A DNA stretch of 64,000 nucleotides from an uncultured delta proteobacterium (lineage in GTDB: Bacteria > Desulfobacterota > Syntrophia > Syntrophales > Smithellaceae). Positions 4,431 through 50,189 of this stretch are shown here, in pieces. The first letter of the stretch is position 1. Each line of letters begins with the position of its first letter. Position numbers and translations under genes: made by a program. The notes below the pieces were generated by a model. That model did no database searches, was not told the origin of the DNA, and was given only the letters and a program-made list of their open reading frames with translations. The stretch covers positions 85,900-149,899 of the forward strand of contig CAVSRI010000031.1 of assembly GCA_963730275.1 (NCBI GenBank). The letters are read 5' to 3'.

Positions 4431-6390
4431 ATGAAAACTTTACAGAATCTGCTTAAACCAATCCGTATTAAAAATTTGGAAATTTCCAATCGCGTAATCA
4501 TGCCGCCCATGGGCACCTCGCTGGGTAATGCCGACGCTACAGTCAGCGAAGCCAACATCGCCTATATCAGACGCCGGGCACAAAGCGGTGCCGGTCTGAT
4601 CATCACGGAAATTACTGCAGTTCATCCCGCGGGACATGTTTCTCCCCGCTCCCTGGGAGTTTGGGATGATAAGTTCATTCCCGGCTTCAGCAAATTGGCG
4701 CAAACCGTACACAGCCAGGGGGCTAAAATCGCCATGCAGCTTCATCATTGCGGCCGGGAAAGTTACCTGAAGCAAAAAAATAAGCAAGCCATCGGGCCTT
4801 CGGCGATACCCAGTTTTATTTTCGGCTTTCTGGGCGCGCCGCGCGAAATGACGCTCGAAGAAATTAAGGAAACCATTGTTGCATACGGCGCCGCTGCTCT
4901 TCGCGCTAAAAAGGCCGGTTTTGATGCCGTGGAACTTCACGGAGCGCACGGTTATCTCCTCATGCAGTTTCTTTCCGCTCATTCCAATCAACGCACCGAC
5001 AAATATGGCGGAGATTTCCGCGGACGCGCGCGCTTCATGATTGAATGCCTTAAAGCGGTGCGCAAAAATGTCGGCGAAGATTTTCCTGTATCTATCCGGA
5101 TTTCCGGTGAAGAATGCGTAAAAGGCGGCTACACTATTTCCGATATGCAAACAATAATTCCGGATCTGGTTGCCGCCGGTGCGGATATTATTAACGTATC
5201 TTTCGGCACGCACGGCAATCCCGAAGTAAATACCGACACGCCCAATGCCAGTGCGCCTGTGGAATACGGGCAGGGTTTTAAAGCCTATTTGGCGCGTAAA
5301 ATTAAAGAGGTGACCAATGTGCCGGTTATTTCAGTCGGACGTTATACAGACCCGTTTGTTATGGACGAAGTCATTGCCCGCGGTGACGCGGATATGATTG
5401 CCGTGGCGCGCCAGCATCTGGCCGATCCTGATTTCCTGAAAAACGCCATTGCCGGACATCCCGAATACACTTTTGAATGTCTGGCCTGCAATCAGGGATG
5501 CATCGAGCGCCTTTCAATAGAGCAATTACCTATTCGCTGTGCCATTAACCCGCAAACCGGACAGGAACTAATCTACCCGGAAAAACCAGCTAAAATCAGC
5601 CGCAAAGTATGGGTTGTTGGCGCAGGCCCCGCCGGTCTGACAGCCGCTTCCGAGGCGACACGTTTAGGACATCGTGTCACTTTATTCGAACGGGAAAAGC
5701 AGACAGGCGGAAATGTTCTCTATGCGGCAAAAGCTCCCCACAAGGAGGTTTACGCCAGATACATAAAAACACTTACGGCAAAGTGCGCAAGGCAGGGCGT
5801 CGAAATAAAAATCGGTACGGATGTCACGGAAGATATGATCGAAAAAGCGAAGCCGGATGTTGTTATTCTGGCCATTGGCGCGGATAAAACCGCCTGCCCT
5901 GCCGAAGGAATAAACAGTTCTGTCGTGTGTGATGCCTGGCAGATTCTAGATGGAGAAGTCGCCCCCAAAGATCATGTTTTAGTTATCGGCGGTGGCCTTG
6001 TGGGCATGGAGACGGCGGATTATTCTGCGCGAGAAAGGTATCAAAGACATAACCGTGGTCGAAATGCTGCCCACCTCTCCTGTTTTGCCGCAAGCCGCAC
6101 ACGGTCAAATGTTGCATCGGCGTTTGCGCGCGACAGGCATTAAATTAATGTTCAGCACAACGGTAAAACAAATCGAAAAAGGCTCTGTTATCGTCACAAA
6201 AAAAGGCGAAGATCAAAGATTAGAACCCATCCATCAGGTTATAGTTGCCATCGGCGTTACGCCCAGAAGTGAGTTGAAAGAAATGCTGGCGAAAAAAGGA
6301 ATTCGTCATTTTATTGTCGGTGATGCGTCGGCGCCCCGCCGTATTATCGAAGCGACGACGGATGGGGCTAAGGCCGCCTGGGATATATAA
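4431..6390 (+). CDS. Old-Yellow-Enzyme-type flavoprotein fused to an FAD/NAD(P)-binding domain (2,4-dienoyl-CoA reductase / enoate reductase family), split by one frameshift
   Basis: OYE TIM-barrel blocks (PPMGT, HGAHGYLLMQFLS), Cys cluster CLACNQGC, GAGPAGL Rossmann. ORFs 4431-6143 and 5992-6390 join at about 6020-6030 (...GGGLVGMETADY|LREKGIKDITVVEM...). Confidence 0.8.
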
Positions 6391-9814: not shown

Positions 9815-12313
9815 TTACGCTTCATCAGGCATTTGCCGGACTAACGCTCTTTGCGTTTTGCGCCGAACTCTGCGCAGGCGCAAAGAATTGCTGACAACCG
9901 AAACGGAACTCAAGGCCATCGCCGCTGCGGCAAACTCCGGATTCAGCAGGATGCCGAAGAAAGGATACAAAATACCTGCGGCAATCGGAATCCCTATAAC
10001 ATTATAAAAGAAAGCCCAGAAAAGATTCTGCTTGATCACCCGCATGGTAGCGGCAGATAGATTGATCGCCTCCGGCACGCCCATCAAATCATCACGGATC
10101 AAAGTTATATCGCCCGCTTCAATCGCTACGTCCGTTCCGGCCCCAATCGCAATACCAACATCAGCCACGGCCAGCGCCGGAGCATCGTTGATGCCGTCGC
10201 CAACCATAGCGACAACTTCGCCTTCCTTTTGCAGTTTCTTAATTTCATCCGCTTTGCTGCCCGGTAGGACTTCCGCCAGGACACGATCAATTCCTAATTG
10301 AGAGGCGACAGCCTGAGCCGTACCGGCATTATCCCCTGTGACCATCGCCACTTTCAAGCCCCGGCGCTTCAGTTCGTAAATGGCCTGTTTTGCTGAATCT
10401 TTCGGTACATCGGCAAGAGCAATAAGACCAATAGCAGTATTTTCCCTAGCAACATAAACAGCCGTTTTCCCCTCTAGTGCAAGCTTAGAGGCCGCTTCAT
10501 CCAAAACTGTAGCTGAAATGCCTTCGGTTTCCATCAACAGACGATTGCCGATGAGACATGATTTGCCTCCCAGTATGGCTTTTACTCCCATCCCGGATAA
10601 TGCCGTAAATTTATCTGCTTGAGCCACGGGGATTTGATCGTCTTGTGCTCGTTGTAAAATCGCCTGAGCCAGTGGATGCTCGGACATTTTCTCCAGCGCA
10701 GCGGCCGCAGCCAAAACTTCTTTATTACTGAAACCGCGGGCGGTAGAAACATCGGTTACCACGGGTTCGCCACGCGTCAATGTTCCTGTTTTATCGAAAA
10801 CGATCATAGAAAGCTGATGAATTTTCTCCAGAGCCTCGCCGCCTTTGATTAGGATGCCTCTTTGCGCTCCCAGGCCGGTGCCTACCATGATCGCTGTCGG
10901 CGTAGCCAGGCCCAGCGCACAAGGGCAGGCAATAATAAGCACCGAAACAAAATTGATTAAAGCACGGGAAAAATTGTTATCGGCGGGAAAGAAATACCAA
11001 ATGAGAAATGTAATAATGGCAATGACAAAAACAGTGGGAACAAAAAAAGAAGCAACTTTATCTGCCAGCCGCTGGATGGGTGCTTTGGAGCCTTGCGCCT
11101 CTTCCACCAGGCGGATGATTTGCGCCAGAGCAGTCTCTGCGCCCACACTCGTGGCGCGGAAGGTGAAACTACCGGATTTATTCATTGTGGCGGCAAAAAC
11201 CTTCTGTCCGATCTCTTTGGTCACTGGCATGCTCTCACCGGTTAACATTGATTCGTCAATAGTCGATTGGCCGGTTAGAACAATCCCATCAACAGGAATC
11301 CGCTCACCGGGTTTCACCAGAATCACGTTATCTGCCCGCACATTCTCTACAGCAACATCCAACTCTTCACCGTCTTGGATCAGATGTGCCGTTTTGGGTT
11401 TAAGCCCGATTAACTTTTTTATAGCTTGTGAGGTTTTTCCTTTTGCCCCCGCCTCCAAAAGCCGGCCTAACAAAATGAGAGTGACGATCATTGCCGCTCC
11501 GTCATAATAGACATGGGGCATTACACCGCCTTTCATGAATAAGTGGGGAAAAAAGGTTGCCGCAACGGAATAGGCATAGGCTGAAAATGCGCCTACGGCC
11601 ACCAGAGTGTTCATATCCGATGTTTTCTGCCGTGCGGCTTTGATCGCGCCGATAAAAAAACGACTGCCTACCCAGAAAACAACAGGAGCAGTCAAAACAA
11701 ACATTGCCCAGAGCATCGTCTGACGGGGGATGAAATGCAAGAAGCCAAACCAGTGTTGCATGGAGCCGAAAAAAATAATGACGCTCAATACTGCGCCGCA
11801 GGTCACTTTTAACTTCAGTTCCCGTAGCTCCCTGGCACGGGCAGCTTCCGCTGGATCGGAAAGTGTATCTTTTAGTTCGCCCAGGAATTCATAACCGTGT
11901 TCGGTTACGGCTTTTGCCAGGGCCGGCAAACTTCCCCACCTAGCGGTATGAATCACTGTAGCCCGGGATGTAGCCAGGTTAACACTGGCATCCAGCACAC
12001 CTTCAACATCTTTAAGTGCATTTTCCACCCGCCGCACACAGGCTGCGCAGGTCATTCCGCCGACGGTAATGGTGACTTTTTCTTGATCCGTTCCGGATGC
12101 ATCGACAAAAGCCTCGTAGCCCAGATCATGGACTTTATTTTGTAGTGCTTTTATATCGACAATATTTTTGTCATATTCCACCTGCGCTTTTTCCGTCGCC
12201 AAGTTTACCGTCGCTCTGAGCACGCCGGGCGTTTGGTTTAAGCCTTCCTCGATACGCCGGACACAAGCCGCGCAGGTTATACCGCGAATGTTAAGCGTTA
12301 CTTTATCCGACAA
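9815..12313 (-). CDS. copA: Copper-translocating P1B-type ATPase
   Basis: Two N-terminal HMA domains ([16 protein letters not shown]), CPC motif ([11 protein letters not shown]), [15 protein letters not shown]. Confidence 0.95.
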
Positions 12314-12503
12314 CTTCGTACCCTGCCTTTTTTATCGCCGCGGCTATTTTTTGAGGATCAACCGGTTTTACTTCCTCGTAGGTGGCCACACCGCTTTTTA
12401 AATCCACCTGAACATTTTTTATGCCTTCCAGAGCGCCGAGCGCTTTGGTTACCGCCATAACGCAATGCTGACAACTCATTCCCTTTATTTTAATACTTTT
12501 CAT
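12303..12503 (-). CDS. copZ: Copper chaperone (HMA domain)
   Basis: 66 aa with GMSCQHCV metal-binding motif. Overlaps the copA start by 11 nt. Confidence 0.9.
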
Positions 12504-12812
12504 CTTATTTCTCTCCTTAAATAATAAAATTTAGCATTCTTAATTTAAGGATATTTTGCCTACAAGCAAGATTAATAATCAATATTTTTGGCATTTTATT
12601 CACTTAAGCTTAATATTTTCTTCTTACTTGCTATTAATTTTATTCTGTATTATGGCAAAAAAAGGGGGGAAATGATTATTCGCTGCCGTGGCGTCAAAAG
12701 TAAAAAACATCTCGAATATTTTGCCGTTTCGCAGTCCATGGAATTGGCGTTTTAATTTGCTGGCGATTGTGTTTGCAGTTAATAGTTTTCTAATGATAAT
12801 TGTGGTGTCGGA

Positions 12813-13457
12813 GTGCTTAAAAAAATTGTATATGCTTACTTAATCTCTATTTTGGTCTTTCTCGTTATGACTAATCCGGTGGCTGGAGCGCAAAAAGATA
12901 TGAAGGCAAAAGTTACAGAAAACATTAATGAGGAAATCACGCTGGGTGGGGGCTGCTTTTGGTGTTTGGATGCTATTTATAGAGAAATCAGAGGGGTAGA
13001 AAAAGTTCTTTCCGGCTATTCCGGAGGTTCGGTCGCTAATCCGACTTATGAAGAAGTGTGCGCAGGATCGACAGGGCACGCGGAAGTTGTGCAAATAACC
13101 TTCAATCCCCTCATCATAACGGCGGAAAAGCTACTCCAGATATTTTTCGTCATTCATGACCCAACGACATTAAACCGTCAGGGAGCCGATGTCGGTACGC
13201 AATACCGTTCGATTATTTTCTACCGTAATCAAAAACAAAAAGATGTTATCGATAAGGTCATGGGCGAACTTAAAAAAGACAAGGTTTACAAAAATCCAAT
13301 TGTCACCGAAGTCGTTCCCTTTCAATCTTTCTATGCCGCTGAAGACTATCATCAGGATTATTACAGTCAAAATAGAGAGCATGGTTATTGCCGCGTTATC
13401 ATTAATCCTAAATTGGAAAAATTTAGGAAAACATTCCGCGATAATTTAAAAAAATAA
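12813..13457 (+). CDS. msrA: Peptide-methionine (S)-S-oxide reductase, exported form
   Basis: GGGCFWCLDAIY active-site block, YHQDYY, N-terminal signal-like hydrophobic segment. GTG start. Confidence 0.9.
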   Translation: MLKKIVYAYLISILVFLVMTNPVAGAQKDMKAKVTENINEEITLGGGCFWCLDAIYREIRGVEKVLSGYSGGSVANPTYEEVCAGSTGHAEVVQITFNPLIITAEKLLQIFFVIHDPTTLNRQGADVGTQYRSIIFYRNQKQKDVIDKVMGELKKDKVYKNPIVTEVVPFQSFYAAEDYHQDYYSQNREHGYCRVIINPKLEKFRKTFRDNLKK

Positions 13458-13497
13458 TCGTTCTTAATAAATCCGGATTTCTTTTACGGTCGAAAAC

Positions 13498-15192
13498 ATG
13501 TTCCTGCCTACTACCGCTTCTGAATTAAAAAAATTAACGTGGGATAGACTCGACATAATTCTTGTCACCGGCGACGCCTATATTGACAACCCCTATATAG
13601 GAGTTGCTGTTATCGGTCGGGTTCTGTCGCATGCCGGGTATCGCGTAGGAATTATCGCCCAGCCTGATATTAAAAGCGCTGTCGATATTAGCCGTTTGGG
13701 AGAGCCGGCATTATTCTGGGGAATCACCAGCGGCTGTATGGATTCCATGGTCGCCAATTACACGGCAACAAAGAAAAAAAGACTTGCCGATGATTTGACC
13801 GCCGGAGGGAAAAATAATCACCGTCCGGACCGCGCCGCGGTCGTTTACGCCAATCTGATTAGACAGTATTTTAAAAATACTCGGCCACTGGTTTTGGGTG
13901 GCGTCGAAGCAAGCCTGCGTCGAATCGCCCATTATGATTACTGGTCGGATGCCATCCGCCGCTCGATTTTATTTGATGCCCGCGCCGATATTCTTGTTTA
14001 TGGCATGGCCGAAAAGGCCATACTGGAGGTGGCACAAAAACTGACGAGCGGAGAAGACACGAAAAATATCCGCGGCACTTGTTATATTGATTCCACTCCT
14101 GTGCCCGGATACATTGAATTGCCGTCTTATGAAAAGGTTGTAGCCGACAAAAAAGCTTTCATCCAAATGTTTAATACATTTTACCGCAATAACGATCCAT
14201 TAACTGTGCGCGGCTTGATTCAACAGCATGGTTCCCGCTATCTCGTCCACAATCCGCCTCAACCTCATCTGACAGTTGAGGAATTGGATCAGATCTACGC
14301 TCTGGATTTCACGCGGGACGTCCACCCCTATTACAGTGCACAGGGGAAAGTCAGGGCTATGGATACAATTAAGTTTTCACTGACAACACATCGCGGTTGC
14401 TATGGCGAATGCAATTTTTGTTCAATCGGCCTGCATGAAGGAAGAACAGTAATCAGCCGCAGTGAGCAATCGATAATTAATGAAGCACGCCAAATTACCG
14501 CTCGGGCTGATTTTAGAGGATATATTCTGGATGTGGGCGGGTCAACGGCAAATATGTACGGGATCGACTGCCAGCGCAAAAAAAGCCTAGGAGCCTGTGC
14601 AGATAAACGATGCCTTAACCCGCAGGTTTGCGTGTCCCTGAAGCCGGATCACAGCCGTCAGATCAACCTTCTTAAAAATTTGCGTAAAATTAAGGGCGTA
14701 AAAAAAGTATTTGTTGCCTCCGGTATTCGCTACGATTTACTGGGGGCCGATAAAAAATATTGTGCAGGTTACATGCAAGAGCTCGTTTTTCACCACATCT
14801 CCGGCCAGTTAAAAGTGGCGCCGGAACATATTTCTCCCAGCGTCTTAAAGCTGATGGGCAAGCCACAAGCGCAGTCACTTATAAATTTCCAGCGGCTTTT
14901 TGAAAAATATTCAAAGGCTTCGGGACGCAAACAATTTCTGACATATTATTTTATCGCCGCCCATCCGGGATGCACTGAAGAAGATATGCGTGAGCTGAAA
15001 TCCTTTGCCACCAAGGAGCTGAAAATTAATCCGCAGCAGGTGCAAATATTTACGCCTCTGCCTTCCACTTATTCCAGCCTGATGTATTGGACGGAAATTG
15101 ATCCCGCAACCGGCAGGAAAATTTTTGTCGAAAAGAATATGGCGAAAAAACAGAAACAGAAAGATATTATTACGGGAAAAACGAGCAGATAA
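13498..15192 (+). CDS. ygiQ: YgiQ-family radical SAM protein (UPF0313)
   Basis: Characteristic MFLPTT start, CYGECNFCSI radical-SAM cluster motif, length about 560 aa. Confidence 0.85.
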   Translation: MFLPTTASELKKLTWDRLDIILVTGDAYIDNPYIGVAVIGRVLSHAGYRVGIIAQPDIKSAVDISRLGEPALFWGITSGCMDSMVANYTATKKKRLADDLTAGGKNNHRPDRAAVVYANLIRQYFKNTRPLVLGGVEASLRRIAHYDYWSDAIRRSILFDARADILVYGMAEKAILEVAQKLTSGEDTKNIRGTCYIDSTPVPGYIELPSYEKVVADKKAFIQMFNTFYRNNDPLTVRGLIQQHGSRYLVHNPPQPHLTVEELDQIYALDFTRDVHPYYSAQGKVRAMDTIKFSLTTHRGCYGECNFCSIGLHEGRTVISRSEQSIINEARQITARADFRGYILDVGGSTANMYGIDCQRKKSLGACADKRCLNPQVCVSLKPDHSRQINLLKNLRKIKGVKKVFVASGIRYDLLGADKKYCAGYMQELVFHHISGQLKVAPEHISPSVLKLMGKPQAQSLINFQRLFEKYSKASGRKQFLTYYFIAAHPGCTEEDMRELKSFATKELKINPQQVQIFTPLPSTYSSLMYWTEIDPATGRKIFVEKNMAKKQKQKDIITGKTSR

Positions 15193-34541: not shown

Positions 34542-35608
34542 ATGAACAGGATAAGAATTAAAGCTGGCAGGCGCGTTTACAAAATTATCAAAGATGGCGG
34601 TTTTGATTTAAATTCCGTTTCGACATATTATGGAGCGGCGGTAGGGCCGAGATGGTTAATTGCCAGCGGCTTTGATTTAACTCTCTTGAAAGGCGGGTTT
34701 TTAGGCCGTTCCAGAGCTGTTAATTTGGTTGGCTCCTCTGCCGGAGCGTGGCGTTTCGCTGCCTGGTTACAACCGGAAACTTTACAATGTTACCAAAAAC
34801 TTTTAAATGCCTATATAAATACAAGATATTCCCGAAAAGATAATCCTTCCAGTGTGTTGGAGAAATTTACCGGCCTCGTTAATGAATATCTGGAAGACGA
34901 TGCGTTGCCTTTTGCTTTAGCGAATAAAAGATATCGTTTAGCCATAATTACTGCCCGGTCACGCGGCCTTGTTCTTCAGAAATTCGATGGTTACAAAAAT
35001 TGGGGTTAGCATCTTGTTATTTATTAAATTGCTTCAGCCGTAATAATATTTATCGTTTTGCGGAGAGGGTTGTGTTTTATAATTGCTCCATGCCGCCGTC
35101 CTTTTGTTTACAGCCGCAGTTCCGCGGCCGCTACGTAAGAATCAATGAAATCAATTTCAAGTACGCGATTATGGCCTCGGGAGCCATTCCTCTTGTTGTT
35201 GCCGGTGTGCGTAACATTTATGGCGCTCCGCGCGGCATTTACCGTGATGGCGGGCTCATTGATTATCATCTTACACACCAGTTTGCCGCTAAAGAAAACG
35301 AAACAGTTCTTTTCTTTCATCATCAGGAACGGATCATTCCGGGTTGGTTAGATAAAAGGTGGGTGCGTCGTATGCCTGATGAGGAAACATTAAGCAATGT
35401 CTTGATGGTCTTTCCCACGCAAAGTTTTGTGGAAAAACTTCCGGATGGAAAAATTCCCGAGCGCGCTGATTTTCTCACCTACCTTGATGATCAGGAAACA
35501 AGAATTAAAAATTGGCACAAAGCCGTGGAATTGTCTGCCCCGCTGGGTAATGATTTTATAGAACTGGTGGAAAGCGGCAGGCTCAAGGATGTAGTGGAAA
35601 AACTGTAA
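34542..35608 (+). CDS. Patatin-like phospholipase, split by one frameshift
   Basis: GSSAGAW (GxSxG) nucleophile and DGGLIDY catalytic Asp. ORFs 34542-35009 and 35000-35608 overlap at the A5/G4 runs around 34995-35006. Confidence 0.7.
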
Positions 35609-39731: not shown

Positions 39732-40612
39732 TTAAATTAAATTACGATCAAGGGAGCGATATTGAATTGCTTCGGCTACATGAGCTGATTCAATGCCTTC
39801 CTTGTTTTCTAGATCGGCGATGGTACGGGAAACTTTCAATATCCGGTTTACCGCCCGGGCGCTTAATCCCAGTTTTTCAATGGCCATTTCGATGAGCTTA
39901 TGCGAATTTTCATCTATGGGGCAAAAATTCCTTATTTGCCTTTCCGTCATGCGGGCATTACAAAGAATATTTTTAGTACCGAACCGCTTTTTTTGCAATT
40001 CCCGCGCATAGTTTACACGACCTTTAATTGTCGAGGAGGATTCCCCCAATTCTTTGTCGGAAAGGGCCCGATATTTGACCGAAGGCACTTCGATATGCAA
40101 ATCTATTCGATCCAATAACGGCCCTGATATTTTGGCTTGATACTGCCGAATTTGCTGCGCGCTGCAGCGGCAGGTGCGAATACGATCGCCAAAATAACCA
40201 CAAGGACAGGGATTCATGGCGGCAACGAGCATAAATTTTGCAGGGAAAGATGCTGTTATCGAAGAACGAGTAATTGTTATAGCGCCTTCCTCCAATGGTT
40301 GACGGATAGCTTCCAGTGCGTTTTTTTTGAACTCAGGTAATTCATCCAAAAAAAGAACTCCCAGATGAGCAAGGCTTATTTCACCCGGCCGGGGTATTTG
40401 ACCGCCTCCAACCAAACCGACATCAGATATTGTGTGATGCGGCGAACGAAAGGGACGTACAGCAACTAAATATCCGTCTTTATTCAATGAACCGGAAACG
40501 GGAAAAACTTTGGTTACTTCAATCGCCTCTTCGAAAGAAATGTCGGGCAAAATCGTGGGCAGCCTTTTTGCCAGCATACTTTTACCGGAGCCCGGGGGGC
40601 CGATCATCAGCA
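39732..40612 (-). pseudogene. comM: comM (YifB/Mg-chelatase-like ATPase) 3' part, separated from its 5' part by an inserted element
   Basis: Begins abruptly at (L)[16 protein letters not shown] (Walker A) and continues to the normal C-terminus. The 5' part lies at 49536-50189. Confidence 0.9.
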
Positions 40613-40622
40613 TATTATATAG
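40601..40622. other. Left att junction (comM/element)
   Basis: cgatcatcAGcatattatatag; the element arm catattatat starts at 40611. Confidence 0.7.
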
Positions 40623-40751
40623 TATTTAATTTAATAATTTCCTTATAGCTTCGTACATTAATATCAATCAAAATTAATATATTGCGTAGCCTGAATGAAA
40701 TACTTGTTTTCTTTAAACCACTGTATAAAAAATATAATATTGAGGTACAAA

Positions 40752-41177
40752 ATGCAAGTCCTAATCATAAATAAAGATGGTATAAAAAATATAAATTTAA
40801 ACAGAAGAAAAACCATCCATGAACGATGTCTCGATTGTAGCGCTTGGATTCCTAAAGAGGTTACAGACTGTACTCTTACGCAGTGTTCATTGCATCCTTA
40901 CCGCTTGGGGAAAGGAAAACAAGATGCAGCAGAAAGGCAAAAAGCTATCCGAGCATATTGTTTATTGTGCATGAATGGGCAGATAGGAGAAGTGACAAAA
41001 TGTCCTTCTATAAATTGTTCTTTGTTCGCATACCGCAAAGGTGGATTAGAGAGAGCAATAACATCACCTTCTTTTGAGAAAATAGGCAATACAGAGGGAT
41101 CATTTTCAATAAACGTGGGTGCAATGAATAGAGCCAAAGGGGAAAATCAGTCGTGTATAAAAACAATGCCTATATGA
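40752..41177 (+). CDS. Tandem Cys-motif (zinc-ribbon-like) protein, unknown function
   Basis: Two copies of C-x2-C-x9-10-C-x4-C-x-L-x2-YR-x-G (CLDCSAW...CTLTQCSLHPYRLG and CLLCMNG...CPSINCSLFAYRKG). RBS gaggt before ATG 40752. Confidence 0.55.
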   Translation: MQVLIINKDGIKNINLNRRKTIHERCLDCSAWIPKEVTDCTLTQCSLHPYRLGKGKQDAAERQKAIRAYCLLCMNGQIGEVTKCPSINCSLFAYRKGGLERAITSPSFEKIGNTEGSFSINVGAMNRAKGENQSCIKTMPI

Positions 41178-41545
41178 CTTTGGGGAGATTGAAATAGCGG
41201 AAAAACCAGGTAATGTCTTATAAACATTTATTCCTTCTATAGAGATAATCAATATTGCTGATGTAAAAGACCCGGCAGAGCTTTCTGATCAAGAAGCTTT
41301 AGATATAAAAGAAAGCATTGAATTTGGCTGATTTATAAAAAAAATTTATTTATTAATAAGAACAACAGCTTGTCTTACTTTTTAAAGAAAAAACATAAAA
41401 AATATTCACAGAAATAAACTTTTGCTCGGTATTTTTTCGTTAATGTATATTGAAAGGGGATTTTTTATGAACAACAAGTATTCAAAACTTATTAATAAGA
41501 ATAAAGGCTGGCCGGCAGACTTAACGACCATAATAGTGTTTTTTT

Positions 41546-42184
41546 ATGAATGAAGAATCCGGAAATAATTTGTTCAAAGGCTTACTGAAAAGAAGAATTA
41601 AAAAAGATTCTTTACCTTTGGAACAAAGATATGAAACTCATAAAGCTGAAGTTCTAGCTAACCGAAGTCCTTCTTATCAATTACCACACAAGAAGCAAGT
41701 TGGAAAAGGAAAAGGAACTTTTATAGAGCGAGATTTGTTTGAGTCAGATGCATTCTTAGCGTTGAGAGGGGTTGCTCCGCAAATGCTGATTTACCTTTTG
41801 GGAAAACGTTTTTTTAAAAAAACCCGTCGAGGGAAGTTTTGCGAAAACCAGAACGAATTAACTCTAAGTTACGCCGAACTAAAAAAACTCGGTGTTACTC
41901 AACCAAGAGCAACGCGTGGTTTTGATGAGCTGCTTGCCAAAGGATTTATTGAATTAAAGCATCAAGGCGGCGCTTATCAAAAAGATCAGAGTGTTTATGC
42001 TTTATCCAATCAATGGCTACTCTGGAAAAAGGGAGCTGTGTTTTCCAAGCGGCCAACTGTTTCCAAAAAGGGCTTTCAAGGCGGTCAAAAAACCAAAACA
42101 ACATACGAAAACCTTGCCCATGCACACATACGAAAACGTTCCTCAATAGACAACTTTAGAGCAACGAAAGCGTTGGCAGGATAA
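41546..42184 (+). CDS. Basic protein of unknown function, possible winged-helix DNA binder
   Basis: 212 aa. The segment LSYAELKKLGVTQPRATRGFDELLAKGFIE resembles an HTH/wHTH. No family recognised. Confidence 0.5.
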   Translation: MNEESGNNLFKGLLKRRIKKDSLPLEQRYETHKAEVLANRSPSYQLPHKKQVGKGKGTFIERDLFESDAFLALRGVAPQMLIYLLGKRFFKKTRRGKFCENQNELTLSYAELKKLGVTQPRATRGFDELLAKGFIELKHQGGAYQKDQSVYALSNQWLLWKKGAVFSKRPTVSKKGFQGGQKTKTTYENLAHAHIRKRSSIDNFRATKALAG

Positions 42185-42379
42185 TTAGATATAATTGAGT
42201 ATAATATCAAGTGCTTATAATGGAAAATTGGGCGAAGTAAAAATCAAAATTTAAAGCAACGATTCCGTATGCGTTTACATGATTACCATATCATAGAAGC
42301 TTGGTTTTGCTTCTTGATCTTGGTTGAATATCAGTTGAATAGCATGGAGTAAAGAAATGAAAGTTACATGGAGTGAAAA

Positions 42380-42832
42380 ATGATTACTGCTAAAACAGGA
42401 AAAAAACAGCGTGGGAAGCCTTTCTCGAAGGGGAAAAGTGGTAATCCAGCCGGACGTCCACAAGGGAGCAGGAACAAAGCTACCTTGGCTGCTTTGAACT
42501 TATTGGAAGGCGAAGCTGAGAAGTTGACACGTAAGGCTGTTAGCCTTGCCTTAAAAGGCGATACTACAGCATTGAAACTATGTATTAGCCGTCTTATTCC
42601 TCCGTGCCACGAACGGCCTTTGGAGATGAACTTGCCGGCAATTTTGAATGCTGAGGATTTGCCAAAATTAACCGCTGCTTTACTTGAAGCAGTTGGCCAA
42701 GGAAAAATAACACCCAGCGAAGCTTCGACTCTTTCCACGCTAGTCACAGCCCATGCTAGAAGTCTTGAGATGATGGATTTTGAGAAGCGCTTGGCCGCTC
42801 TGGAAGCTATTAAGGACAAGGGAGGAAATTAA
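42380..42832 (+). CDS. DUF5681-type protein (phage/plasmid-associated)
   Basis: F.KG.SGNPAGRP.GSRNK motif near the N-terminus. RBS ggagtg. Confidence 0.6.
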   Translation: MITAKTGKKQRGKPFSKGKSGNPAGRPQGSRNKATLAALNLLEGEAEKLTRKAVSLALKGDTTALKLCISRLIPPCHERPLEMNLPAILNAEDLPKLTAALLEAVGQGKITPSEASTLSTLVTAHARSLEMMDFEKRLAALEAIKDKGGN

Positions 42833-42836
42833 GACA

Positions 42837-43109
42837 ATGAATAAGAATACAAAAAAACGATTAACCGAACTGGAAAGCCAGAAAGTAATAGAGTCACAGT
42901 CACTTTTTCTAATTATGGATTTCGGTGGCAAAGATGAAGATGCAAAAGTAAATGTTTACTCGCGCCATTCAATGGGAAATGACAGCCCTAAAGTAAGACA
43001 GCAGCCTGATGAAGATGCTGACAAGTTTTTTGAGCGAGCCAAAAAAGAGCTTTATGGTGAGGACGCAGAAAAACCTGGCGTCAAACTTATGATCGGTTGG
43101 TGTGAATAG
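42837..43109 (+). CDS. Small acidic protein, unknown
   Basis: ATG 42837 preceded by RBS ggagga. 90 aa. Confidence 0.45.
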   Translation: MNKNTKKRLTELESQKVIESQSLFLIMDFGGKDEDAKVNVYSRHSMGNDSPKVRQQPDEDADKFFERAKKELYGEDAEKPGVKLMIGWCE

Positions 43110-43524
43110 CGAAACGTTCAAATCAAAAGATTTTGGTTTACCCAATTACTACCGTTTTTTTGTTCCTTTTGATGAGCTCAATACGGAATTCAACAGACAG
43201 GTTTCCAGCCAGAGCTTTTTGAAGTCCAGAAACAAAGGCCAAATTGGGGGTAGGAACTGCGTTTATTTATACCGTCTTTTGCCAAAAAAGCTCATATAGA
43301 GGCAGTTTTTTCAGTCGATTCCCTGTTATTAAAAAAGCCCTTATGGCGAAAAAATGCAAAAAATCGTTTTAATCGGGCAAAATAGATTAATATATTAATA
43401 ATTACAATATGTTATGCATTTTCAGGCATGACTAAATATTAATAACAATTAATAACAAATTATAATATATTATAATATAACAAAATATAATAATAAAAAG
43501 TCCACATTAAACTGAATTGATTAA

Positions 43525-43752
43525 CGCAAGGATGCTTACGGTGAACTTGGCGAATATCAGCGTGCCATTGAGGACTATAACGAGGCCATACGCCTGAAAC
43601 CGGATTATGCTGTGCCCTACAACAACCGAGGGAATGCTTATTTAAAGCAGGACAACAAAAACCTTGGCTGCCCTGATGTGCAAAAGGTGTGGGCATTGGG
43701 AAACTGTAAAGCGTTAAAACGGGTAAAAGGTAAGGATGACTGCCTTGATTGA
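43525..43752 (+). pseudogene. 5'-truncated TPR-repeat gene fragment
   Basis: Open frame without a start: ...GEYQRAIEDYNEAIRLKPDYAVPYNNRGNAYLKQ... (canonical TPR), ending GC.D..K...LGNC...*. It begins right after an AT-only low-complexity tract. Confidence 0.65.
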
Positions 43753-43821
43753 GATTTGTCTTGTAAGAAAGGATAGCCCAATTTATTTACTTCTGCATAT
43801 TAATTGTTGGAGGACATAATT

Positions 43822-44460
43822 ATGGCAAAACAAACGGTCAAAGAATTTAAAGAAGAACTGTATAAACTTTTCGATCAACGTGTCTACTGGCTCGTCAACT
43901 CAATTGGAGGGAAGAAGCTTGGTAAGCCACCAAAATTCACTAGCAAAACGGTCTCAAAAACTATAGCAAACTTGCAGAAAATTGCATTAAAAAGTATCAC
44001 TGACACACTCGCAAAAAAAGAATTTGGTAAGCTTGCTGAAAAGAGGAAACAATGGCATTTAAAGAATAAGGGCTGGGGAATAGAAAAAAAGAAACAGAAC
44101 TTTGAAGTTTGGTACACCAAGAATATCCCATATCGAAATTGCATTTATATTTTTTGGAGCAGTAAAAATGGGAAACATACATGTCTTTATGTTGGAAAAA
44201 CAGAAAGAGGAAAAGGTAGACCACAAAATCATTTTGATAAACGCTGGTTTGGTTCAGTCACAAGAATTGATATATATTCTGTGCCATCTGCTTCTCAAGT
44301 GATGAAACTGGAGTGTTTAGCAATACATCGGTTCAATCCGAAAGTGAATAAAAACAAAGCGCCAGAAAAAAAATGGTACAAAAAATGTCCCGTTTGCGAG
44401 GTGCTCTCACTTATAAATGGCGAACTCAGAAGCATCTTTTCATTAAAAAAGAAAAGATAG
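43822..44460 (+). CDS. GIY-YIG nuclease-domain protein with basic N-terminal extension
   Basis: CIYIFW...CLYVGKT...R...H....W...E..AI..F.P..N spacing of the GIY-YIG core. C-terminal CPVC. RBS ggagga before ATG 43822. Confidence 0.6.
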   Translation: MAKQTVKEFKEELYKLFDQRVYWLVNSIGGKKLGKPPKFTSKTVSKTIANLQKIALKSITDTLAKKEFGKLAEKRKQWHLKNKGWGIEKKKQNFEVWYTKNIPYRNCIYIFWSSKNGKHTCLYVGKTERGKGRPQNHFDKRWFGSVTRIDIYSVPSASQVMKLECLAIHRFNPKVNKNKAPEKKWYKKCPVCEVLSLINGELRSIFSLKKKR

Positions 44461-44592
44461 AGTATCCGACAAACGGTTCACAAGAAGTAGTGCATTGACG
44501 GATACGTTTCAAAAAGTTATTCTGTACTCTATTGAGTAAGAACATCAAAGGTCAACTTAAATCTGATTTAACTACTAATCGGACACCTGCTT

Positions 44593-45174
44593 ATGATTAC
44601 GGATAGAGTTTCCATTATTATTGGCGATAAAAAGTCGCACTATAGTGCGATAAATAAAGCAGTCAGAATTATAAAAGATACATATAATGGTGAATTTAAT
44701 GTCAACGACCTAACGTCTCTTGATTCATTCTCACCTGAGGAAAAAGAACATCTAAGAAATATATTTTCTTATAATATTACTGGAGTAATTGCTTGGGAAC
44801 ACAGCTTCTATTTTCAAGAAGGTATTTGGAAGTACGAAGAATCAGGTTATAATTATGAAAAAGCAATGCGGGATATATTGCAGCTGCTGAATACCAGCAC
44901 GACTTCGATCGGCGAAAAAGTCTACACTAATGATTATCGGCTCATAGAGAACCTCTGGCGTGGCTGGAATAATTTATGGGACGATGAAGTAGAAGAAGTC
45001 CAGGGAAAGAATCGTCTATATGAAGTAAATCCTGATGCTATAGAGTTTATATCTCATAATCTTAAAAGTAGAATCGGTGACTTTTGTATTTTTAATTTTG
45101 AATTTGTTAAAACCTTCATGGAATCATTAAGCGATTATCACGCAAAGCGAGTTTATGATTGTATAATGAAATGA
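44593..45174 (+). CDS. Hypothetical protein (193 aa)
   Basis: Clean ORF, Trp/acidic-rich. No motif recognised. Confidence 0.5.
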   Translation: MITDRVSIIIGDKKSHYSAINKAVRIIKDTYNGEFNVNDLTSLDSFSPEEKEHLRNIFSYNITGVIAWEHSFYFQEGIWKYEESGYNYEKAMRDILQLLNTSTTSIGEKVYTNDYRLIENLWRGWNNLWDDEVEEVQGKNRLYEVNPDAIEFISHNLKSRIGDFCIFNFEFVKTFMESLSDYHAKRVYDCIMK

Positions 45175-45250
45175 AAGAATCACGGTCATAATTCTTGATA
45201 ACAAATCCATCCTGGTCTGTGTGATAATGACTTTTATTGGATAGGATAAA

Positions 45251-45667
45251 TTGTTCTTAGATATTTTATCTTTTTATGTTATTTTATTCGCAGTGAAAAC
45301 ATATAAACCAACCCAAATATTGATTGCGGCTGAGAAGGAAGAAAGTATTGGTACTGCACTTGCCGAGGCCTTAATGAGTGCCGGGTTTAATGCAACAATT
45401 GTTGATAAGTCTGACAGTCTGTTTTATGAATTGAGAGGAGGATCTTATTCTGTTCTTATTCTCACAAACAATACTCTATCACCCGAAGAAATTATTCAGA
45501 TGACCATCCAGATTAGATACTTTCACAAAAACATCAAAATTATTGTACTGTCGGGCTGGGTCGATGATGGATTCCCCGAAAGACTCATGAAGCTTGGTGC
45601 TTCTAAATTCTTTGCGTTACCAGTCAATTTAGAAGAACTAACAAAATACATTCAGAATATAATATAA
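45251..45667 (+). CDS. Degenerate receiver (pseudo-REC) domain protein
   Basis: CheY-like alternation (ILIAAEKEE ... VLILTNN ... IIVLSGW ... ASKFFALPV), but the acidic pocket, the phospho-acceptor Asp and the conserved Lys are replaced. Start uncertain (TTG). Confidence 0.45.
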   Translation: MFLDILSFYVILFAVKTYKPTQILIAAEKEESIGTALAEALMSAGFNATIVDKSDSLFYELRGGSYSVLILTNNTLSPEEIIQMTIQIRYFHKNIKIIVLSGWVDDGFPERLMKLGASKFFALPVNLEELTKYIQNII

Positions 45668-45773
45668 GAAATGGGGAAGTTCGCAATAATTATCTAAAAA
45701 AATAGAAAGGCTGAAACATTTTCGCTGAGAATCACTTTGTCCTTTTAATCAGACATTAATTTTTACGTCTATG

Positions 45774-45872
45774 AGGAAGTTGCCGATAAAAAAGTTCCAT
45801 TAAAAATTTCAAGATCGCTATCCGCTGGAACCATTACCTATAGCAAGTTCTGTCTAATTAATATTAACTTTT
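45774..45872 (+). repeat. Direct repeat copy A flanking the membrane-protein gene
   Basis: Hand alignment with 46728-46824 gives 16 differences in about 98 positions. Ends in ctaattaatattaac, which contains the 10-nt palindrome ttaatattaa. Confidence 0.8.
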
Positions 45873-45978
45873 ATTAAAAACTGAATATACAACGCATTAT
45901 TTCGTTGCTTTCACCTACAAGTCCTCAGTTTTTGATAACGTATAGAATTGAGGATTACCACTCGAAAGAGAGTAATAA

Positions 45979-46701
45979 TTAAACTAAATAGTTTAAAAAA
46001 TATGCAAAGATGGAATACAATAAAATACTTGAAAATATTGAACACCACAACAGAACAGCAGTAAGAGCAAATTTACTTCCTGCCCATTTTTCAAACATTT
46101 TTTTATCCTTAAAAGTAATATAAAGGTAAATAACGGTATTAATTAGTATCGTTATTAATCCCCCCACAAAAAACATTTTTACAGTTTTAAAAAAACGACA
46201 ACCGAGAGCGCCAAGAAATGGTATTATAAAGAGTGCGAATGTTAGCAGTATGTCTTTTCTTTTAACTTTCATTCTAAATTTTTCAGAAAGAAGTAATGTT
46301 TCACCCCCCAGATTTTTTATTTTCAAATTCTTTTCTTCAATAATTATAACAAATACTATAATACCTAGTATCATAAAGGTCGTAAAAAAGTCAGCTATTG
46401 AATTTCCCAATTTGTCAATAGCTAAACAGTATACCCCGGAATAAGTTTTATATGGTGAAAAACCATGTATCCCTCCATTAAATATTTCACTTATATTTTT
46501 ATGAATTAGCTCTGCATATTTTTGAGCAAGAATAAAATTCAAGATACTATTAAACAAAGGTATTATCGCTACTAGTAAAACGAAAATGACGTAGAGAGGC
46601 TTCATTTTTGATGAACTAATATTTTTCATGTAAATAACAATAGATTGATATAAAATAATTGTCAATGAAATGTTGATTACCACTTGAAAGGAAGTAAGCA
46701 A
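45979..46701 (-). CDS. Polytopic membrane protein, unknown
   Basis: 240 aa, 6-7 hydrophobic helices, very AT-rich. Lies exactly between the two direct repeats. Confidence 0.55.
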   Translation of the reverse strand: MLTSFQVVINISLTIILYQSIVIYMKNISSSKMKPLYVIFVLLVAIIPLFNSILNFILAQKYAELIHKNISEIFNGGIHGFSPYKTYSGVYCLAIDKLGNSIADFFTTFMILGIIVFVIIIEEKNLKIKNLGGETLLLSEKFRMKVKRKDILLTFALFIIPFLGALGCRFFKTVKMFFVGGLITILINTVIYLYITFKDKKMFEKWAGSKFALTAVLLWCSIFSSILLYSIFAYFLNYLV

Positions 46702-46727
46702 ACCAAAATTGCCGGATGCTTGACTTC

Positions 46728-46824
46728 AGGAAGTTGTCAATAAAAAGTTCTCTTAACAATTTCAAAATCGCCACCCGCTGGAATCGTTGCCTATATTAAG
46801 TTCCTTCTAATTAATATTAACTTT
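46728..46824 (+). repeat. Direct repeat copy B
   Basis: See copy A. It is followed by a second gttaatattaac core at about 46833-46845. Confidence 0.8.
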
Positions 46825-46978
46825 ATGTTATTAGTTAATATTAACAAATCATCATTTAACCTAATAATTTTAATAATTTATAATAAATTCGCAAGTTTGG
46901 AAAAATATTTATTTAATTTTTACTCTAAGTATTATATAATAATCATAAATATACTTAATATTGGAAAAGGTAACGTAT

Positions 46979-47599
46979 ATGGCAATAACTATCAGCAAAA
47001 AACAAAGCAATCCCAACCATCCGGCAAAAGGTTCATCTACGATTGTTGAACCGATCAGGAATGAGAGTGATATTAAGGCCATCAGAAAACTACTTTCTGA
47101 CAATACCCGCAATCACCTGCTCTTTGTCATGGGGATTAATAATGGCTTACGGGTTGGAGATTTACTGAAACTAAAGATTAAAGATGTAAAGCATATGAAA
47201 CCCGGCGACAGTATCAATATCAAGGAAGGGAAAACAGGCAAGCAAAATATCCTGGTCATAAATAAGACCGTTCATAAGGTACTGACGCAATATCTGACGG
47301 AGGAACAGCATTCAGATGATGAATATCTCTTCAAGAGCAAAAAAGGAGATCATCCATTAACGGTTCAGGCCGTCAACGCCTATATCAAGAATTGGACTTC
47401 TACGATAAATCTCAGAGGCAACTATGGGGCTCATTCTTTGAGAAAGACGTGGGGGTATATTCAACGGACAAATTATGGTGTTGGTTTTGAAGTGATCTGC
47501 AAGAGATTCAATCATCAGAGTCCTGCTGTTACCATGCGGTATCTCGGTATTACCGATAAGGAAGTCCAAAACATTCTGACGAATAACGAAATTGGATGA
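46979..47599 (+). CDS. Minimal tyrosine recombinase (catalytic domain only)
   Basis: GLRVGDL (Arg I), HSLRKT (His-x-x-Arg), NHQSPAVTMRYL (catalytic Tyr). About 205 aa with no N-terminal core-binding domain. An alternative TTG start is at 46961. Confidence 0.75.
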   Translation: MAITISKKQSNPNHPAKGSSTIVEPIRNESDIKAIRKLLSDNTRNHLLFVMGINNGLRVGDLLKLKIKDVKHMKPGDSINIKEGKTGKQNILVINKTVHKVLTQYLTEEQHSDDEYLFKSKKGDHPLTVQAVNAYIKNWTSTINLRGNYGAHSLRKTWGYIQRTNYGVGFEVICKRFNHQSPAVTMRYLGITDKEVQNILTNNEIG

Positions 47600-47661
47600 A
47601 AAATATTTTTTTCAAAATTGCTTAAAGTAGGTTATAATATATATGAAAGGAGGAGAAATAC

Positions 47662-49531
47662 GTGCGTCCCAAGGCATATTCTTATATTCGCTTTAGCACT
47701 CCAGAACAGTGCAAAGGTGATTCCTTACGCCGTCAGACCGAGTTTTCAGAGCACTACGCAGCAGCACATGGGTTTGTGTTAGACAATAGTTTGAGACTTC
47801 AAGACCTAGGAGTAAGTGCTTATTCCGGTGAGCATCGAAGCGAAAAAGGTGCGCTTGGACAATTCTTGAAGTTGGTAGAAGCGGGGAAGATCGAAAAAGG
47901 ATCGGTATTGTTGGTTGAAAACTTCGATCGCCTGTCAAGACAGGAAATCACTATAGCACTGCAACAGTTTCTTGATATTATCAACAGAGGCATAAAAATA
48001 GTGACTCTGATTGATAACCGGGAATACACAGAGGAAACCGTCGACGCCAATGTTGGAGAACTCATTGTTTCCTTGACGATCATGTCCCGCGCTCATGAGG
48101 AATCTGCTACTAAATCTAGACGCTTAACGAAGGCCTGGGAAGGAAAACGCAAACAAGCAAGCACGATGAAGCTTACTGCGCGCTGTCCGGCATGGCTTAA
48201 ACTCAACAAGGCTAAAACTCAATTCGACATCATTGAAGACCGCGAAAAAACTATTTGTCACATATTCAATATGAAGCTTGCTGGGAAGGGCGCTATAACG
48301 ATTGTTAAAGAATTGAACAGCACGCCGGGAATTTGGAAGCCGGGAAACTCAAACAAAAGAAAACACGGTGAAGGCTGGAGGGAGAGTTATGTTAAAAAAA
48401 TTCTTCAGAGCCGATCAGTTATCGGCGAATTTCAGCCACATCGATTATTGAAAGGAAAGCGGGAACCAATCGGAGAGTCAATTCCTGATTATTTCCCGGC
48501 AGTGATTGATAAAGATGTATTCTATCGGGTTCAAGAACAATTCCGACAAAATAATCATAAGGGCGGCAGAACCGGCAAGATTAGTAATCTGTTCAGTTAT
48601 ATTGCAAAGTGCGGTTACTGCGGTAGTTCTATGGCTTTTATTAATAAAGGGCCTGCACCGAAGGGAGGGCAATATCTAGTTTGTGACCGGGCCAGAAGGA
48701 AAGAGTATCGATTGTTGCAGCTTCTCCATCAGATATGATGAGTTTGAACATTTAATTCTGACGCATTGCAAAGGCCTTCGACCAAAAGACATTTTAACCG
48801 AGAATGACAACACGGCCATAACCATTTTGAAAGGTGAGCTAGATGGCAAAGAAGGTGAATTAAACTCTATCACCACAGAGATTGAAAATATTGCAGATAG
48901 TGTTTCCACGACCCCAGACAAGAGAGTCCGCGTAATGCTGGAAAAACGGATGGCGGAAAAGTTTGACAAACGAGATTCTTTGAAGCAACAAATGAATCAC
49001 ATAAAACAGCAAATTGACACTTTATCCCGATCTTTTGAAGACACACAATTAACGTTGGACTCATTGAAGGAATTGCTGGCTTTTCTAAATATCGCTGAAA
49101 CAAAGAAGTTGGTAGACGCGCGGCTCAAGCTGCGAAATGAGATCCGCAAGCTAATCAGCAGGATTGATGTTTACCCCGTAGGTCACGTACATTATACGAT
49201 TGAAACCGCTAAACAAGCATTGAAGGATATGTTAATGGTTATTTCAGAAGACGAAGACCCTAAAGGCTATGCGTGGCTAAAGGAAATTTTACGACGACGA
49301 GTTGAAAGCCCTAAGGATTTTCGTTATTTCAGTATCGAGTTTATATCTGGCAGTATACGAACTATTCATCCAGAGAGAAAATTGCCACTTGGAATGGATT
49401 TTGATAAAGAAGAAAAGGTTCTACGAATTTGGAATGAAATGCAAAATGGAAAAATAATTTGTGAAGAATTTTTAGACGACGGTTATCATAAAAGAGAGGT
49501 TGAAAGATCGGATCATTTAAATAGGATATAA
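47662..49531 (+). CDS. Large serine recombinase, split by one frameshift
   Basis: Resolvase domain with YIRFSTPEQ catalytic Ser, recombinase domain, zinc ribbon CGYCG...YLVC...CC, long coiled-coil tail. ORFs 47662-48738 and 48683-49531 overlap. The stop codon lies inside the right att arm. Confidence 0.85.
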
Positions 49532-49546
49532 TATGAGCACATTGTG
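49525..49546. other. Right att junction (element/comM)
   Basis: gatataatatgAGcacattgtgg; the element arm atataatatg occupies 49526-49535. Confidence 0.7.
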
Positions 49547-50189
49547 GCCTCCCGGCCGCCGCAATTTCCAACGCTCTCAAAGCTTGCTTCTGTCCTTTAA
49601 TTTCATTAAAATCGACTTCATATTGACGTGTTTTCTGAAAAATTTTACTTACGTCCAAAGAAAGCGGCTCAATATTGTTTCGTCCGTTAAAAAATTCCAC
49701 AACATCCGGCAATGTTTTGACCGGGAAAACATTGATTCCTTCTACCATAGCTGCTTCTGCAGCATTTTCTTCCGGAACGAAAACCGACTTGATGCCTATT
49801 TCTTTTGCTTTAAAGGCAGCGGTTAGCACGCCGCTTACTCCTTTAATACTGCCGTCCAGCGACAATTCTCCGATGAAAAAACAATCATGCAAAGCAGTTT
49901 CTTTAATCAATTCTTCCGCGGCCAAAATACCTACAGCGATGGGAAGATCAAACCCAGTTCCTTCTTTTTTAATGTCAGCTGGAGCTAAATTTACGATTAC
50001 ATGACTGCGGGGAAAACGGTAACCGGAGTTCTTTATGGCGGCTTTAATTCGATCCCTGCTTTCTTTGACCGAGGCATCGGGCAGTCCAACAGTGGCAAAT
50101 TGAGGCAACCCCTGGGATATGTCTACTTCCACGGACACAGGGTATGATTCCATACCGATAACGCTCATGCTAAATACTTTAACGAACAC
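49536..50189 (-). pseudogene. comM: comM 5' part
   Basis: MFVKVFS...Lon-protease-like N-domain...KQALRALEIAAAG, then GGHNV in a shifted frame (1-nt discrepancy in C-run 49551-49553). The ORF then reads on into the element. Confidence 0.9.

Follow-up and report, generated by a model that had tools for sequence, protein, structure and literature searches.

A window of 64,000 nucleotides from an uncultured delta proteobacterium of the Smithellaceae (contig CAVSRI010000031.1 of assembly GCA_963730275.1, positions 85,900 to 149,899 of the forward strand; "the window" denotes this whole stretch) contains an inserted element of about 8.9 kb (40613–49535, plus strand) that divides the gene comM, and we conclude, with a probability of roughly 0.9, that the region is an integrated mobile element whose large serine recombinase (LSR) recombined a near-palindromic attP with an attB lying inside comM. 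A first-pass annotation of this DNA had proposed such an LSR element with defined attB and attP; that proposal is supported by empty sites in relatives—the element being absent from the syntenic MoaC-comM-ilvE loci L002–L006—and by 41 related insertions.

On the plus strand the left junction reads cgatcatcAGCAtattatatag at 40601–40622, with AGCA at 40609–40612, and the right junction reads gatataatatgAGCAcattgtggcc at 49525–49549, with AGCA at 49536–49539; over a longer span the two read ccgatcatcAGCAtattatatag and ggatataatatgAGCAcattgtggcc, respectively. All the junction strings and coordinates quoted in the first-pass annotation were correct upon re-reading the window. The tetranucleotide AGCA is the sole sequence common to both junctions, and is present in a single copy in the empty sites. 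When the inner halves are joined, they give ATATAATATG-AG-CATATTATAT, a perfect 10+2+10 palindrome, in agreement with the arms described earlier, and of all the possible centres AG is the only one with a perfect 10-nt run on each side; in a repeat search the terminal inverted repeat reached a length of 19 nt, with 89% identity (40611–40629 versus 49517–49535). The TAA stop codon of the LSR gene (49529–49531) indeed falls, as had been noted, within the right arm ATATAATATG (49526–49535). Random position pairs in the window had at least 10 complementary bases with a frequency of 3.5e-6, and at the element's own spacing only two of 55,013 offsets did so, namely the att site and an unrelated coincidence at 5591/14505; the likelihood that the palindrome arose by chance is low.

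The attL site (40590–40631, with no strand assigned) is composed of the B-type arm from comM, the core AG at 40609–40610, and the P′-type arm CATATTATATAGTATTTAA, whereas attR (49515–49558, likewise with no strand) is composed of the P-type arm TTAAATAGGATATAATATG, the core AG at 49536–49537, and the B′-type arm CACATTGTGGCC. On a circular element the attP would thus read ...TTAAATAGGATATAATATG-AG-CATATTATATAGTATTTAA..., its reconstruction across the joined inner halves being ...GGATATAATATGAGCATATTATATAG..., and the attB reconstructed across the joined outer halves is ...CCGATCATCAGCACATTGTGGCC.... The latter site lies within the comM codons GGHNV-L-MIG, immediately before the Walker A motif. 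The comM half-site CACATTGTGGCC and the P arm CATATTATATCC, when compared by eye, are alike at eight of 12 positions. Serine integrases recognize short att sites, of about 40–50 bp, whose imperfect dyad symmetry surrounds a 2-bp crossover common to attP and attB; in keeping with this, the attP here is dyad-symmetric, has AGCA in common with attB, and has a core whose position is constant across the 41 relatives.

The two pieces of comM are on the minus strand. The 5′ fragment (49536–50189) encodes the ChlI/Lon-like domain up to GGHNV and includes an extra C in the run at 49549–49551, whilst the 3′ fragment (39732–40608, in an open reading frame, ORF, spanning 39732–40613) encodes the Walker A motif onward, residues ~212–509 of the rebuilt protein; in a tblastn search with the ComM of L004 the latter fragment covered residues 215–509, and its nucleotide sequence is 98% identical to, and free of gaps with, the intact comM of L002. 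The repaired ComM has 509 amino acids and matches the Pfam families ChlI, Mg_chelatase, and Mg_chelatase_C, with positions 1–205 of the 207 in the Mg_chelatase profile being matched in one stretch across the joint. A search with that repaired protein retrieved intact proteins at 96–98% identity, which homologues are named YifB-family Mg-chelatase-like ATPase of Smithellaceae.

Searching for the empty site in related genomes, as had been recommended, we found an uninterrupted comM with an identical joint in five related Smithellaceae contigs (L002–L006), where the gene order MoaC, comM, branched-chain aminotransferase (ilvE), and LolA-like is kept; the nucleotide identity to the window flanks is 98% in L002 (the left side being free of gaps) and 92% in L003–L006. 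Because L003–L006 read GGCCACAATGTGCTGATGATCGGCCCCCC across the joint, which string is that of the window's joined outer halves, the empty site exists and the insertion is scarless: the insert splits a ComM/YifB homologue that is uninterrupted in the relatives. The earlier claim that the junctions rebuild an intact comM holds for the joint sequence, where the outer halves give GGCCACAATGTGCTGATGATCGG, translated as GHNVLMIG in accord with the uninterrupted relatives; but it does not hold for the reading frame, since upon translation of the joined outer halves the 5′ piece (...ALEIAAAG) is out of frame with the GHNV codons. The window reads GCCGGGAGG versus GCCGGAGG in all five relatives, a +1 difference (CCC for CC at 49549–49551 of the plus strand) located 10–13 nt from the core.

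The LSR gene occupies the right end of the element (47662–49531, plus strand) and encodes about 622 amino acids after repair; in the window one extra G (48697–48698) splits that gene into the overlapping ORFs 47662–48738 and 48683–49531. Intact homologues at 56–85% identity align with the whole of the merged protein and read CDRARRKSIDCC across the break, and the sister copy (P0241/L176, 98% identical in amino acids) reads AGAAGAAAG versus AGAAGGAAAG in the window at 48698. Pfam recognized the domains Resolvase (E = 3e-15), Recombinase (1e-12), and Zn_ribbon_recom (9e-6), and among 15 homologues there is no variation at residues R10, S12, D89, R90, and R93 or at the zinc-ribbon cysteines C317, C320, C341, and C352. 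An AlphaFold2 model (mean pLDDT 70.8) predicted a resolvase fold, a long E helix, a recombinase domain, and a zinc ribbon with a two-helix coiled coil at residues 383–478 (long helices 383–417 and 421–478), followed at the C terminus by an additional alpha/beta domain (residues ~482–615, about 140 amino acids). The top Foldseek match of that model was a serine integrase on attLsym (9y66), followed by 9iu2 (Bxb1), 9rah (PhiC31), and 4kis (A118), with E-values from 3e-15 to 1e-5 and a probability of 1.00; the TM-scores were low, as is to be expected for a flexible multidomain model. By sequence, phmmer with the single protein gave no match in the PDB, and the LSR profile matched there only the C-terminal domain of A118 (E = 8e-4); in sequence the protein is very distant from all of these integrases. 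Domains, catalytic residues, and predicted fold thus support the assignment of the protein as a large serine recombinase. The viral LSR relatives do not exceed 42% identity and are not flanked by comM, so that they were uninformative; the nearest annotated phage serine recombinases, from the Burkholderia phages JC1, Bcep22, and Bcep176, are 31–34% identical over about 82% of the protein.

To place the insertion among its relatives we scanned one genome per species and obtained 80 loci with LSR relatives at 33–82% identity. In 41 of these 80, comM is broken at codons 207–215, and in 36 of those 41 the junction is located no more than 500 nt from an end of the LSR gene. The hosts belong to the Deltaproteobacteria, Bacillota, Bacteroidota, Alphaproteobacteria (Mesorhizobium, Bradyrhizobium, Afipia), Betaproteobacteria, and Gammaproteobacteria (Stenotrophomonas), and the same arrangement recurs in dozens of genomes, complete chromosomes included; one comM codon is therefore strongly targeted across phyla. 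With the junctions anchored on the comM codons, comM gives way to element sequence at the first two bases of codon 211 in GGHNV-L-MIG (Leu211 in the window), and the core dinucleotide, read in the comM sense, is CT in 29 loci, TT in five, and AT in four, which variation tracks the host codon. In L012 and L019, for which both junctions are available, the codon-211 dinucleotide is the only common sequence (L012, 2 nt, AT) or the central part of it (L019, 6 nt). The symmetry centre, these two loci, and the position of the core in the relatives support the designation of AG on the plus strand, corresponding to the CT of Leu211, as the probable crossover dinucleotide, as had been proposed. The other dinucleotides of the shared AGCA (TGCT on the comM strand), namely TG, GC, and CA, were considered and rejected, because only AG is the symmetry centre and L012 and L019 share only that position.

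Throughout the clade the arms on the element side follow a conserved pattern, TTAA(A)-N5-6-TAYAAYATN-core-NATRTTRTA-N5-6-TTTAA, and the loci have three architectures. In one of these, found in the window and eight loci, the 3′ end of the LSR gene abuts the N-terminal comM fragment on the opposite strand; in another, found in five loci, that 3′ end abuts the C-terminal fragment on the same strand; and in a third the 5′ end of the LSR gene abuts a comM fragment, either the C-terminal one on the opposite strand (21 loci, mostly Alphaproteobacteria) or the N-terminal one on the same strand (two loci).

Certain members of the clade exhibit peculiarities of their own. The AT core of L008, L012, L019, and L071, where the host has Ile at codon 211, is palindromic, and both element orientations are represented among these four loci; a palindromic AT core should abolish the orientation control of an LSR and is a possible route for orientation flips in the clade. 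A further LSR subgroup at 38–43% identity (L031 8445–9875, L062 8495–9892, L074 8537–9949, and L076 9744–9887) has its 5′ end beside a comM that starts at about residue 23, which location suggests a second, different target position in comM. Finally, in L007, the closest relative in the genome collection (82% LSR identity), the 3′ end of the LSR gene is followed by an ORF for a putative IS21-like transposase (11965–13680, as read from the N-terminal sequence), with neither an att site nor comM, so that this copy appears to be disrupted or relocated.

Serine recombinases of this class recombine attP with attB without host factors: they bind the two sites as dimers, synapse through their coiled coils, cut both strands around a central dinucleotide to leave overhangs of 2 nt, and rejoin the ends after a 180-degree rotation. 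By analogy, the LSR encoded by the circular form of the element would have recombined its attP with the attB in comM through the same dimer binding, synapsis, 2-nt staggered cuts, 180-degree rotation, and religation to produce attL and attR; excision, for its part, would need a directionality factor. The N-terminal ComM fragment is terminated seven codons past the core by the TAA that the TTTAA motif contains, and the insertion parts the ATPase half of comM from its promoter. ComM function is thus most likely abolished, to judge from that truncation and that separation from the promoter. In the comM sense attL (40596–40625) has a P′ arm that provides TATAAT and, downstream and in frame, an ATG at codon 210; the 3′ fragment therefore opens with ATG CTG ATG ATC, and an ATG is present at codon 210 in many relatives as well. 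That ATG probably arises incidentally from the CAT/ATG palindrome, while expression of the ATPase half from a start supplied by attL is conceivable.

We weighed other explanations for these same junctions. To an assembly or binning chimera, which might be invoked on account of the many indels in this metagenome-assembled contig and of an odd inverted comM piece at the left end of L176, we give next to no credence: the Logan contig L174 (run ERR11594402), assembled separately, is 100% identical to window positions 40320–44564 (4.2 kb) and spans attL; the ENA contig L176 (ERZ25039519 contig_61924) carries a sister element, 97.4% identical over window positions 43640–49551, with the same attR, ...GGATATAATATGAGCACATTGTGGCCTC; and in the JGI contig L090, whose LSR is 84% identical in nucleotides, an identical P arm and AG are joined to a different comM allele, ...GATATTATGCCCTCC. 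Since attL and attR thus recur in separate assemblies, and the same architecture in dozens of genomes, the junctions are real and not chimeras. Alternatively, AGCA, being at both ends and only once in the empty sites, could be a 4-bp target-site duplication left by a transposon, whose termini would be the inverted repeats. This origin is exceedingly improbable, because Pfam, NCBIfam, and PHROGs detected no DDE, TnsA/B/C-like (TniA/B/C), or Tn7-type gene among the element ORFs; because the shared sequence varies among relatives (2 nt in L012, 6 nt in L019), unlike a duplication of fixed length; and because insertions in different phyla hit the same codon and invariably have an LSR at the element end. 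If, as a further alternative, integration had been carried out not by the LSR but by the small tyrosine recombinase encoded immediately upstream (46961–47599), the apparently intact catalytic domain of that protein, its proximity to the element end, and its retention beside the LSR in L007, L009, and L010 would be accounted for. Tyrosine-integrase sites typically have a 6–8-bp overlap plus arm sites; the present site, however, is a symmetric palindrome with only 2–4 nt in common with attB, and the recombinase, at 212 amino acids, lacks an N-terminal DNA-binding domain. Moreover, such a recombinase is present in only six of the 80 loci with LSR relatives, yet 41 share the comM junction, and it is the LSR gene, not the tyrosine-recombinase gene, that overlaps attP; we therefore consider an integration by the tyrosine recombinase very improbable.

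Several observations weigh against an LSR-driven mobile element as we propose it here: a recombinase of a second type is encoded directly upstream of the LSR; the family searches recognized among the element ORFs neither a directionality factor nor genes for replication or transfer; the LSR at 48698 and the rebuilt comM are both frameshifted in the assembly as deposited, so that this copy could be inactive; and no circular attP junction was found in a JGI metagenome scan or in two viral-contig scans. The last two of these are also what would be expected of a dead, fixed remnant, with an LSR pseudogene and a decaying comM, that is no longer mobile. Nevertheless, relative to the L004 orthologues the window has at least six single-base frame breaks in about 28 kb (near 34970, 36550, 48698, 49550 [49549–49551], 51735, and 53666), and those in the LSR and in comM each amount to a 1-nt change in the length of a run, GG instead of G and CCC instead of CC. 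Because of that abundance of frame breaks nearby, and because the 97%-identical sister copy reads through the LSR site, the two frameshifts are probably consensus indel errors of the assembly; in addition, the rest of the LSR is free of stop codons and conserved at 85% with intact homologues. We accordingly judge a dead remnant to be unlikely, although the activity of this copy hinges on two 1-nt frameshifts of doubtful reality. The frame breaks split, among others, a radical-SAM gene, a 355-amino-acid gene, an HTH_8 gene, and a 1242-amino-acid glutamine-amidotransferase/SIS gene; L176 has indels of its own elsewhere in the LSR, and its contig name suggests a long-read assembly. Exact-protein look-ups found no record of MoaC, the 171-amino-acid neighbour, the aldehyde dehydrogenase, the tyrosine recombinase, or either of the two LSR ORFs.

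The search for circle junctions, which the first-pass annotation had advised, was thus negative in the JGI metagenomes and the viral contigs. From the JGI metagenomes a query of the P arm with the core recovered one genuine attR (L090), alongside three matches ascribed to chance, and in the viral contigs the exact attP 24-mer gave no matches, while three matches to the degenerate palindrome ATATAATATGNNCATATTATAT, with no LSR nearby, were dismissed as chance. Of the earlier description of the element as recently mobile there stands the empty site in a 98%-identical relative; in these scans no circle junction was found, and recent mobility is to that extent only inferred. A more specific role, in which the integrated element would be a reversible comM switch whose scarless excision restores ComM, with the conserved and possibly co-regulated tyrosine recombinase, or one of the small ORFs, controlling directionality or the exchange of cargo, we regard as quite doubtful; SPbeta in spsM and the Listeria prophage in comK are reversible gene switches, and were the present element one as well, its two-recombinase module would be of a kind not yet described for LSR elements.

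With the A118/LI, Bxb1, PhiC31, and SPbeta SprA integrases the LSR of the window shares, according to its predicted structure, the resolvase N-terminal domain, the recombinase domain, and the zinc ribbon with an inserted coiled coil, and the sites share short att sequences with a 2-bp core and a scarless intragenic insertion such as those of A118 in comK and SPbeta in spsM; in contrast to those characterized serine integrases, the protein is very distant in sequence and has the predicted extra C-terminal domain. The recombinases of JC1, Bcep22, and Bcep176, likewise distant from it, are carried by phages of 45–64 kb.

Durrant et al. (2022; PMC10083194) reported that the magnesium chelatase/ATP-dependent protease gene is a significantly enriched LSR target, accounting for 12.4% of the predicted site-specific LSRs. 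Those comM/yifB-targeting elements resemble the one described here in having the LSR at the element end, a short attP beside it, and an attB in a gene with an Mg_chelatase domain, with which features our survey of 80 loci agrees; they differ in that the host here is an uncultured Smithellaceae syntroph and that the subclade of the window pairs the LSR with a small tyrosine recombinase. Croucher et al. (2016; PMC4774983) described mobile genetic elements (MGEs) with a related, conserved integrase in the comM of Aggregatibacter, Acinetobacter, Mannheimia, Francisella, and Pseudomonas, the insertion position being orthologous though imperfectly conserved; like the present element, they are site-specific comM insertions that recur across genera. 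The disruption of competence genes has been read, by those authors and in the supplement of PMC10083194, as shielding MGEs from curing by transformation, and Stutzmann and Blokesch (2020) described another small MGE at a different position in the comM of V. cholerae that lowers transformability. The AbaR/AbGRI islands of Acinetobacter have the same target gene, in the region of the Mg-chelatase domain, but a different mechanism, as the first-pass annotation rightly had it: AbaR encodes Tn7-like TniA/B/C-type transposition proteins (PMC11472951), whose genes were not found in the element of the window.

Because comM-targeting LSRs have already been described (PMC10083194, PMC4774983), the novelty of the element is low: such elements are well documented, and that of the window adds one more. 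The case opens no new question, since both the phenomenon and its proposed rationale, the blocking of transformation-mediated curing, are in the literature; what it does contribute is the extension of this habit of disrupting comM to the uncultured syntrophic Smithellaceae, along with a cleanly defined attP/attB pair for an LSR very distant from every structurally characterized integrase. With the natural attB variants of the relatives (CT, TT, and AT cores and many comM alleles), that pair is a reasonable candidate for an orthogonal integrase toolbox.

The G+C content is lower in the element (0.26–0.45) than in the flanks (0.35–0.51). Family searches of the element ORFs with Pfam, NCBIfam, PHROGs, and PADLOC left the cargo largely without annotation. 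On the plus strand there follow, from the left end, a Cys-rich ORF of 160 amino acids (40695–41177) and one of 212 (41546–42184), neither with a family match, the latter protein being identical in the Logan contigs L174 and L175; a DUF5681 protein of 150 amino acids (42380–42832; Pfam PF18932, E = 1.9e-12), which also matches PHROGs families of unknown function; a weakly GIY-YIG-like protein of 218 amino acids (43804–44460), with E = 6e-4 for Pfam GIY-YIG, below the curated cut-off, and E = 6e-4 for a PHROG endonuclease family; an ORF of 193 amino acids with no credible family match (44593–45174); and a receiver-domain-like protein of 138 amino acids (45251–45667), for which Pfam Response_reg gave E = 2e-6, just below the cut-off, and the NCBIfam matches were weak. 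PADLOC found no defence system in the cargo; no capsid, terminase, portal, or tail genes were detected, PHROGs giving only integrase, weak endonuclease, and unknown-function families; and Pfam, NCBIfam, and PHROGs detected no relaxase or T4SS families, five element ORFs being without a family match. A tailed prophage was rejected, as there are no phage structural genes and 8.9 kb is too small; the element may have a satellite-like lifestyle.

The sole minus-strand gene of the element, encoding a predicted membrane protein of 240 amino acids (45979–46701), is flanked by 100-nt direct repeats (45789–45888 and 46742–46841, 79% identical) and is located just upstream of the tyrosine-recombinase gene. 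Those repeats are present in the sister copy of L176 and absent from L007, L009, and L010; the region may have arisen by local duplication or may constitute a cassette-like unit, and the notion that the repeats are a site for the tyrosine recombinase is unsupported in view of their lack of conservation in those three loci. The tyrosine recombinase itself (46961–47599, plus strand), which has the catalytic domain only, matches Pfam Phage_integrase (E = 7e-21) and the integrase family phrog_216 (E = 6e-47). Its pairing with the LSR is kept in L007 (9326–9943), L009 (9317–9904), and L010 (9224–9811) at 77–89% amino-acid identity, and a distant form of the pair is present in L024, L029, and L032. 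The 42-nt stretches upstream of the two recombinase genes (46900–46941 and 47598–47639) are alike at 74%. Apart from the sister copy of L176, the relatives share the recombinase module only; L007, L009, and L010 are without the cargo of the window.

As to the L176 contig, a 348-amino-acid ORF is found there in place of window positions 41045–43110. At the left end of the contig (1–700) the comM 3′ fragment has its first 272 nt in inverted orientation with respect to the element and preceded by GAGGCC, which arrangement gives an attB-like GAGGCCATAATATGCTGATGATCGG; the comM sequence then breaks at the T-run of Walker B, after which come 137 nt of novel sequence. This odd left end may be either a fold-back assembly artefact or a real rearrangement.

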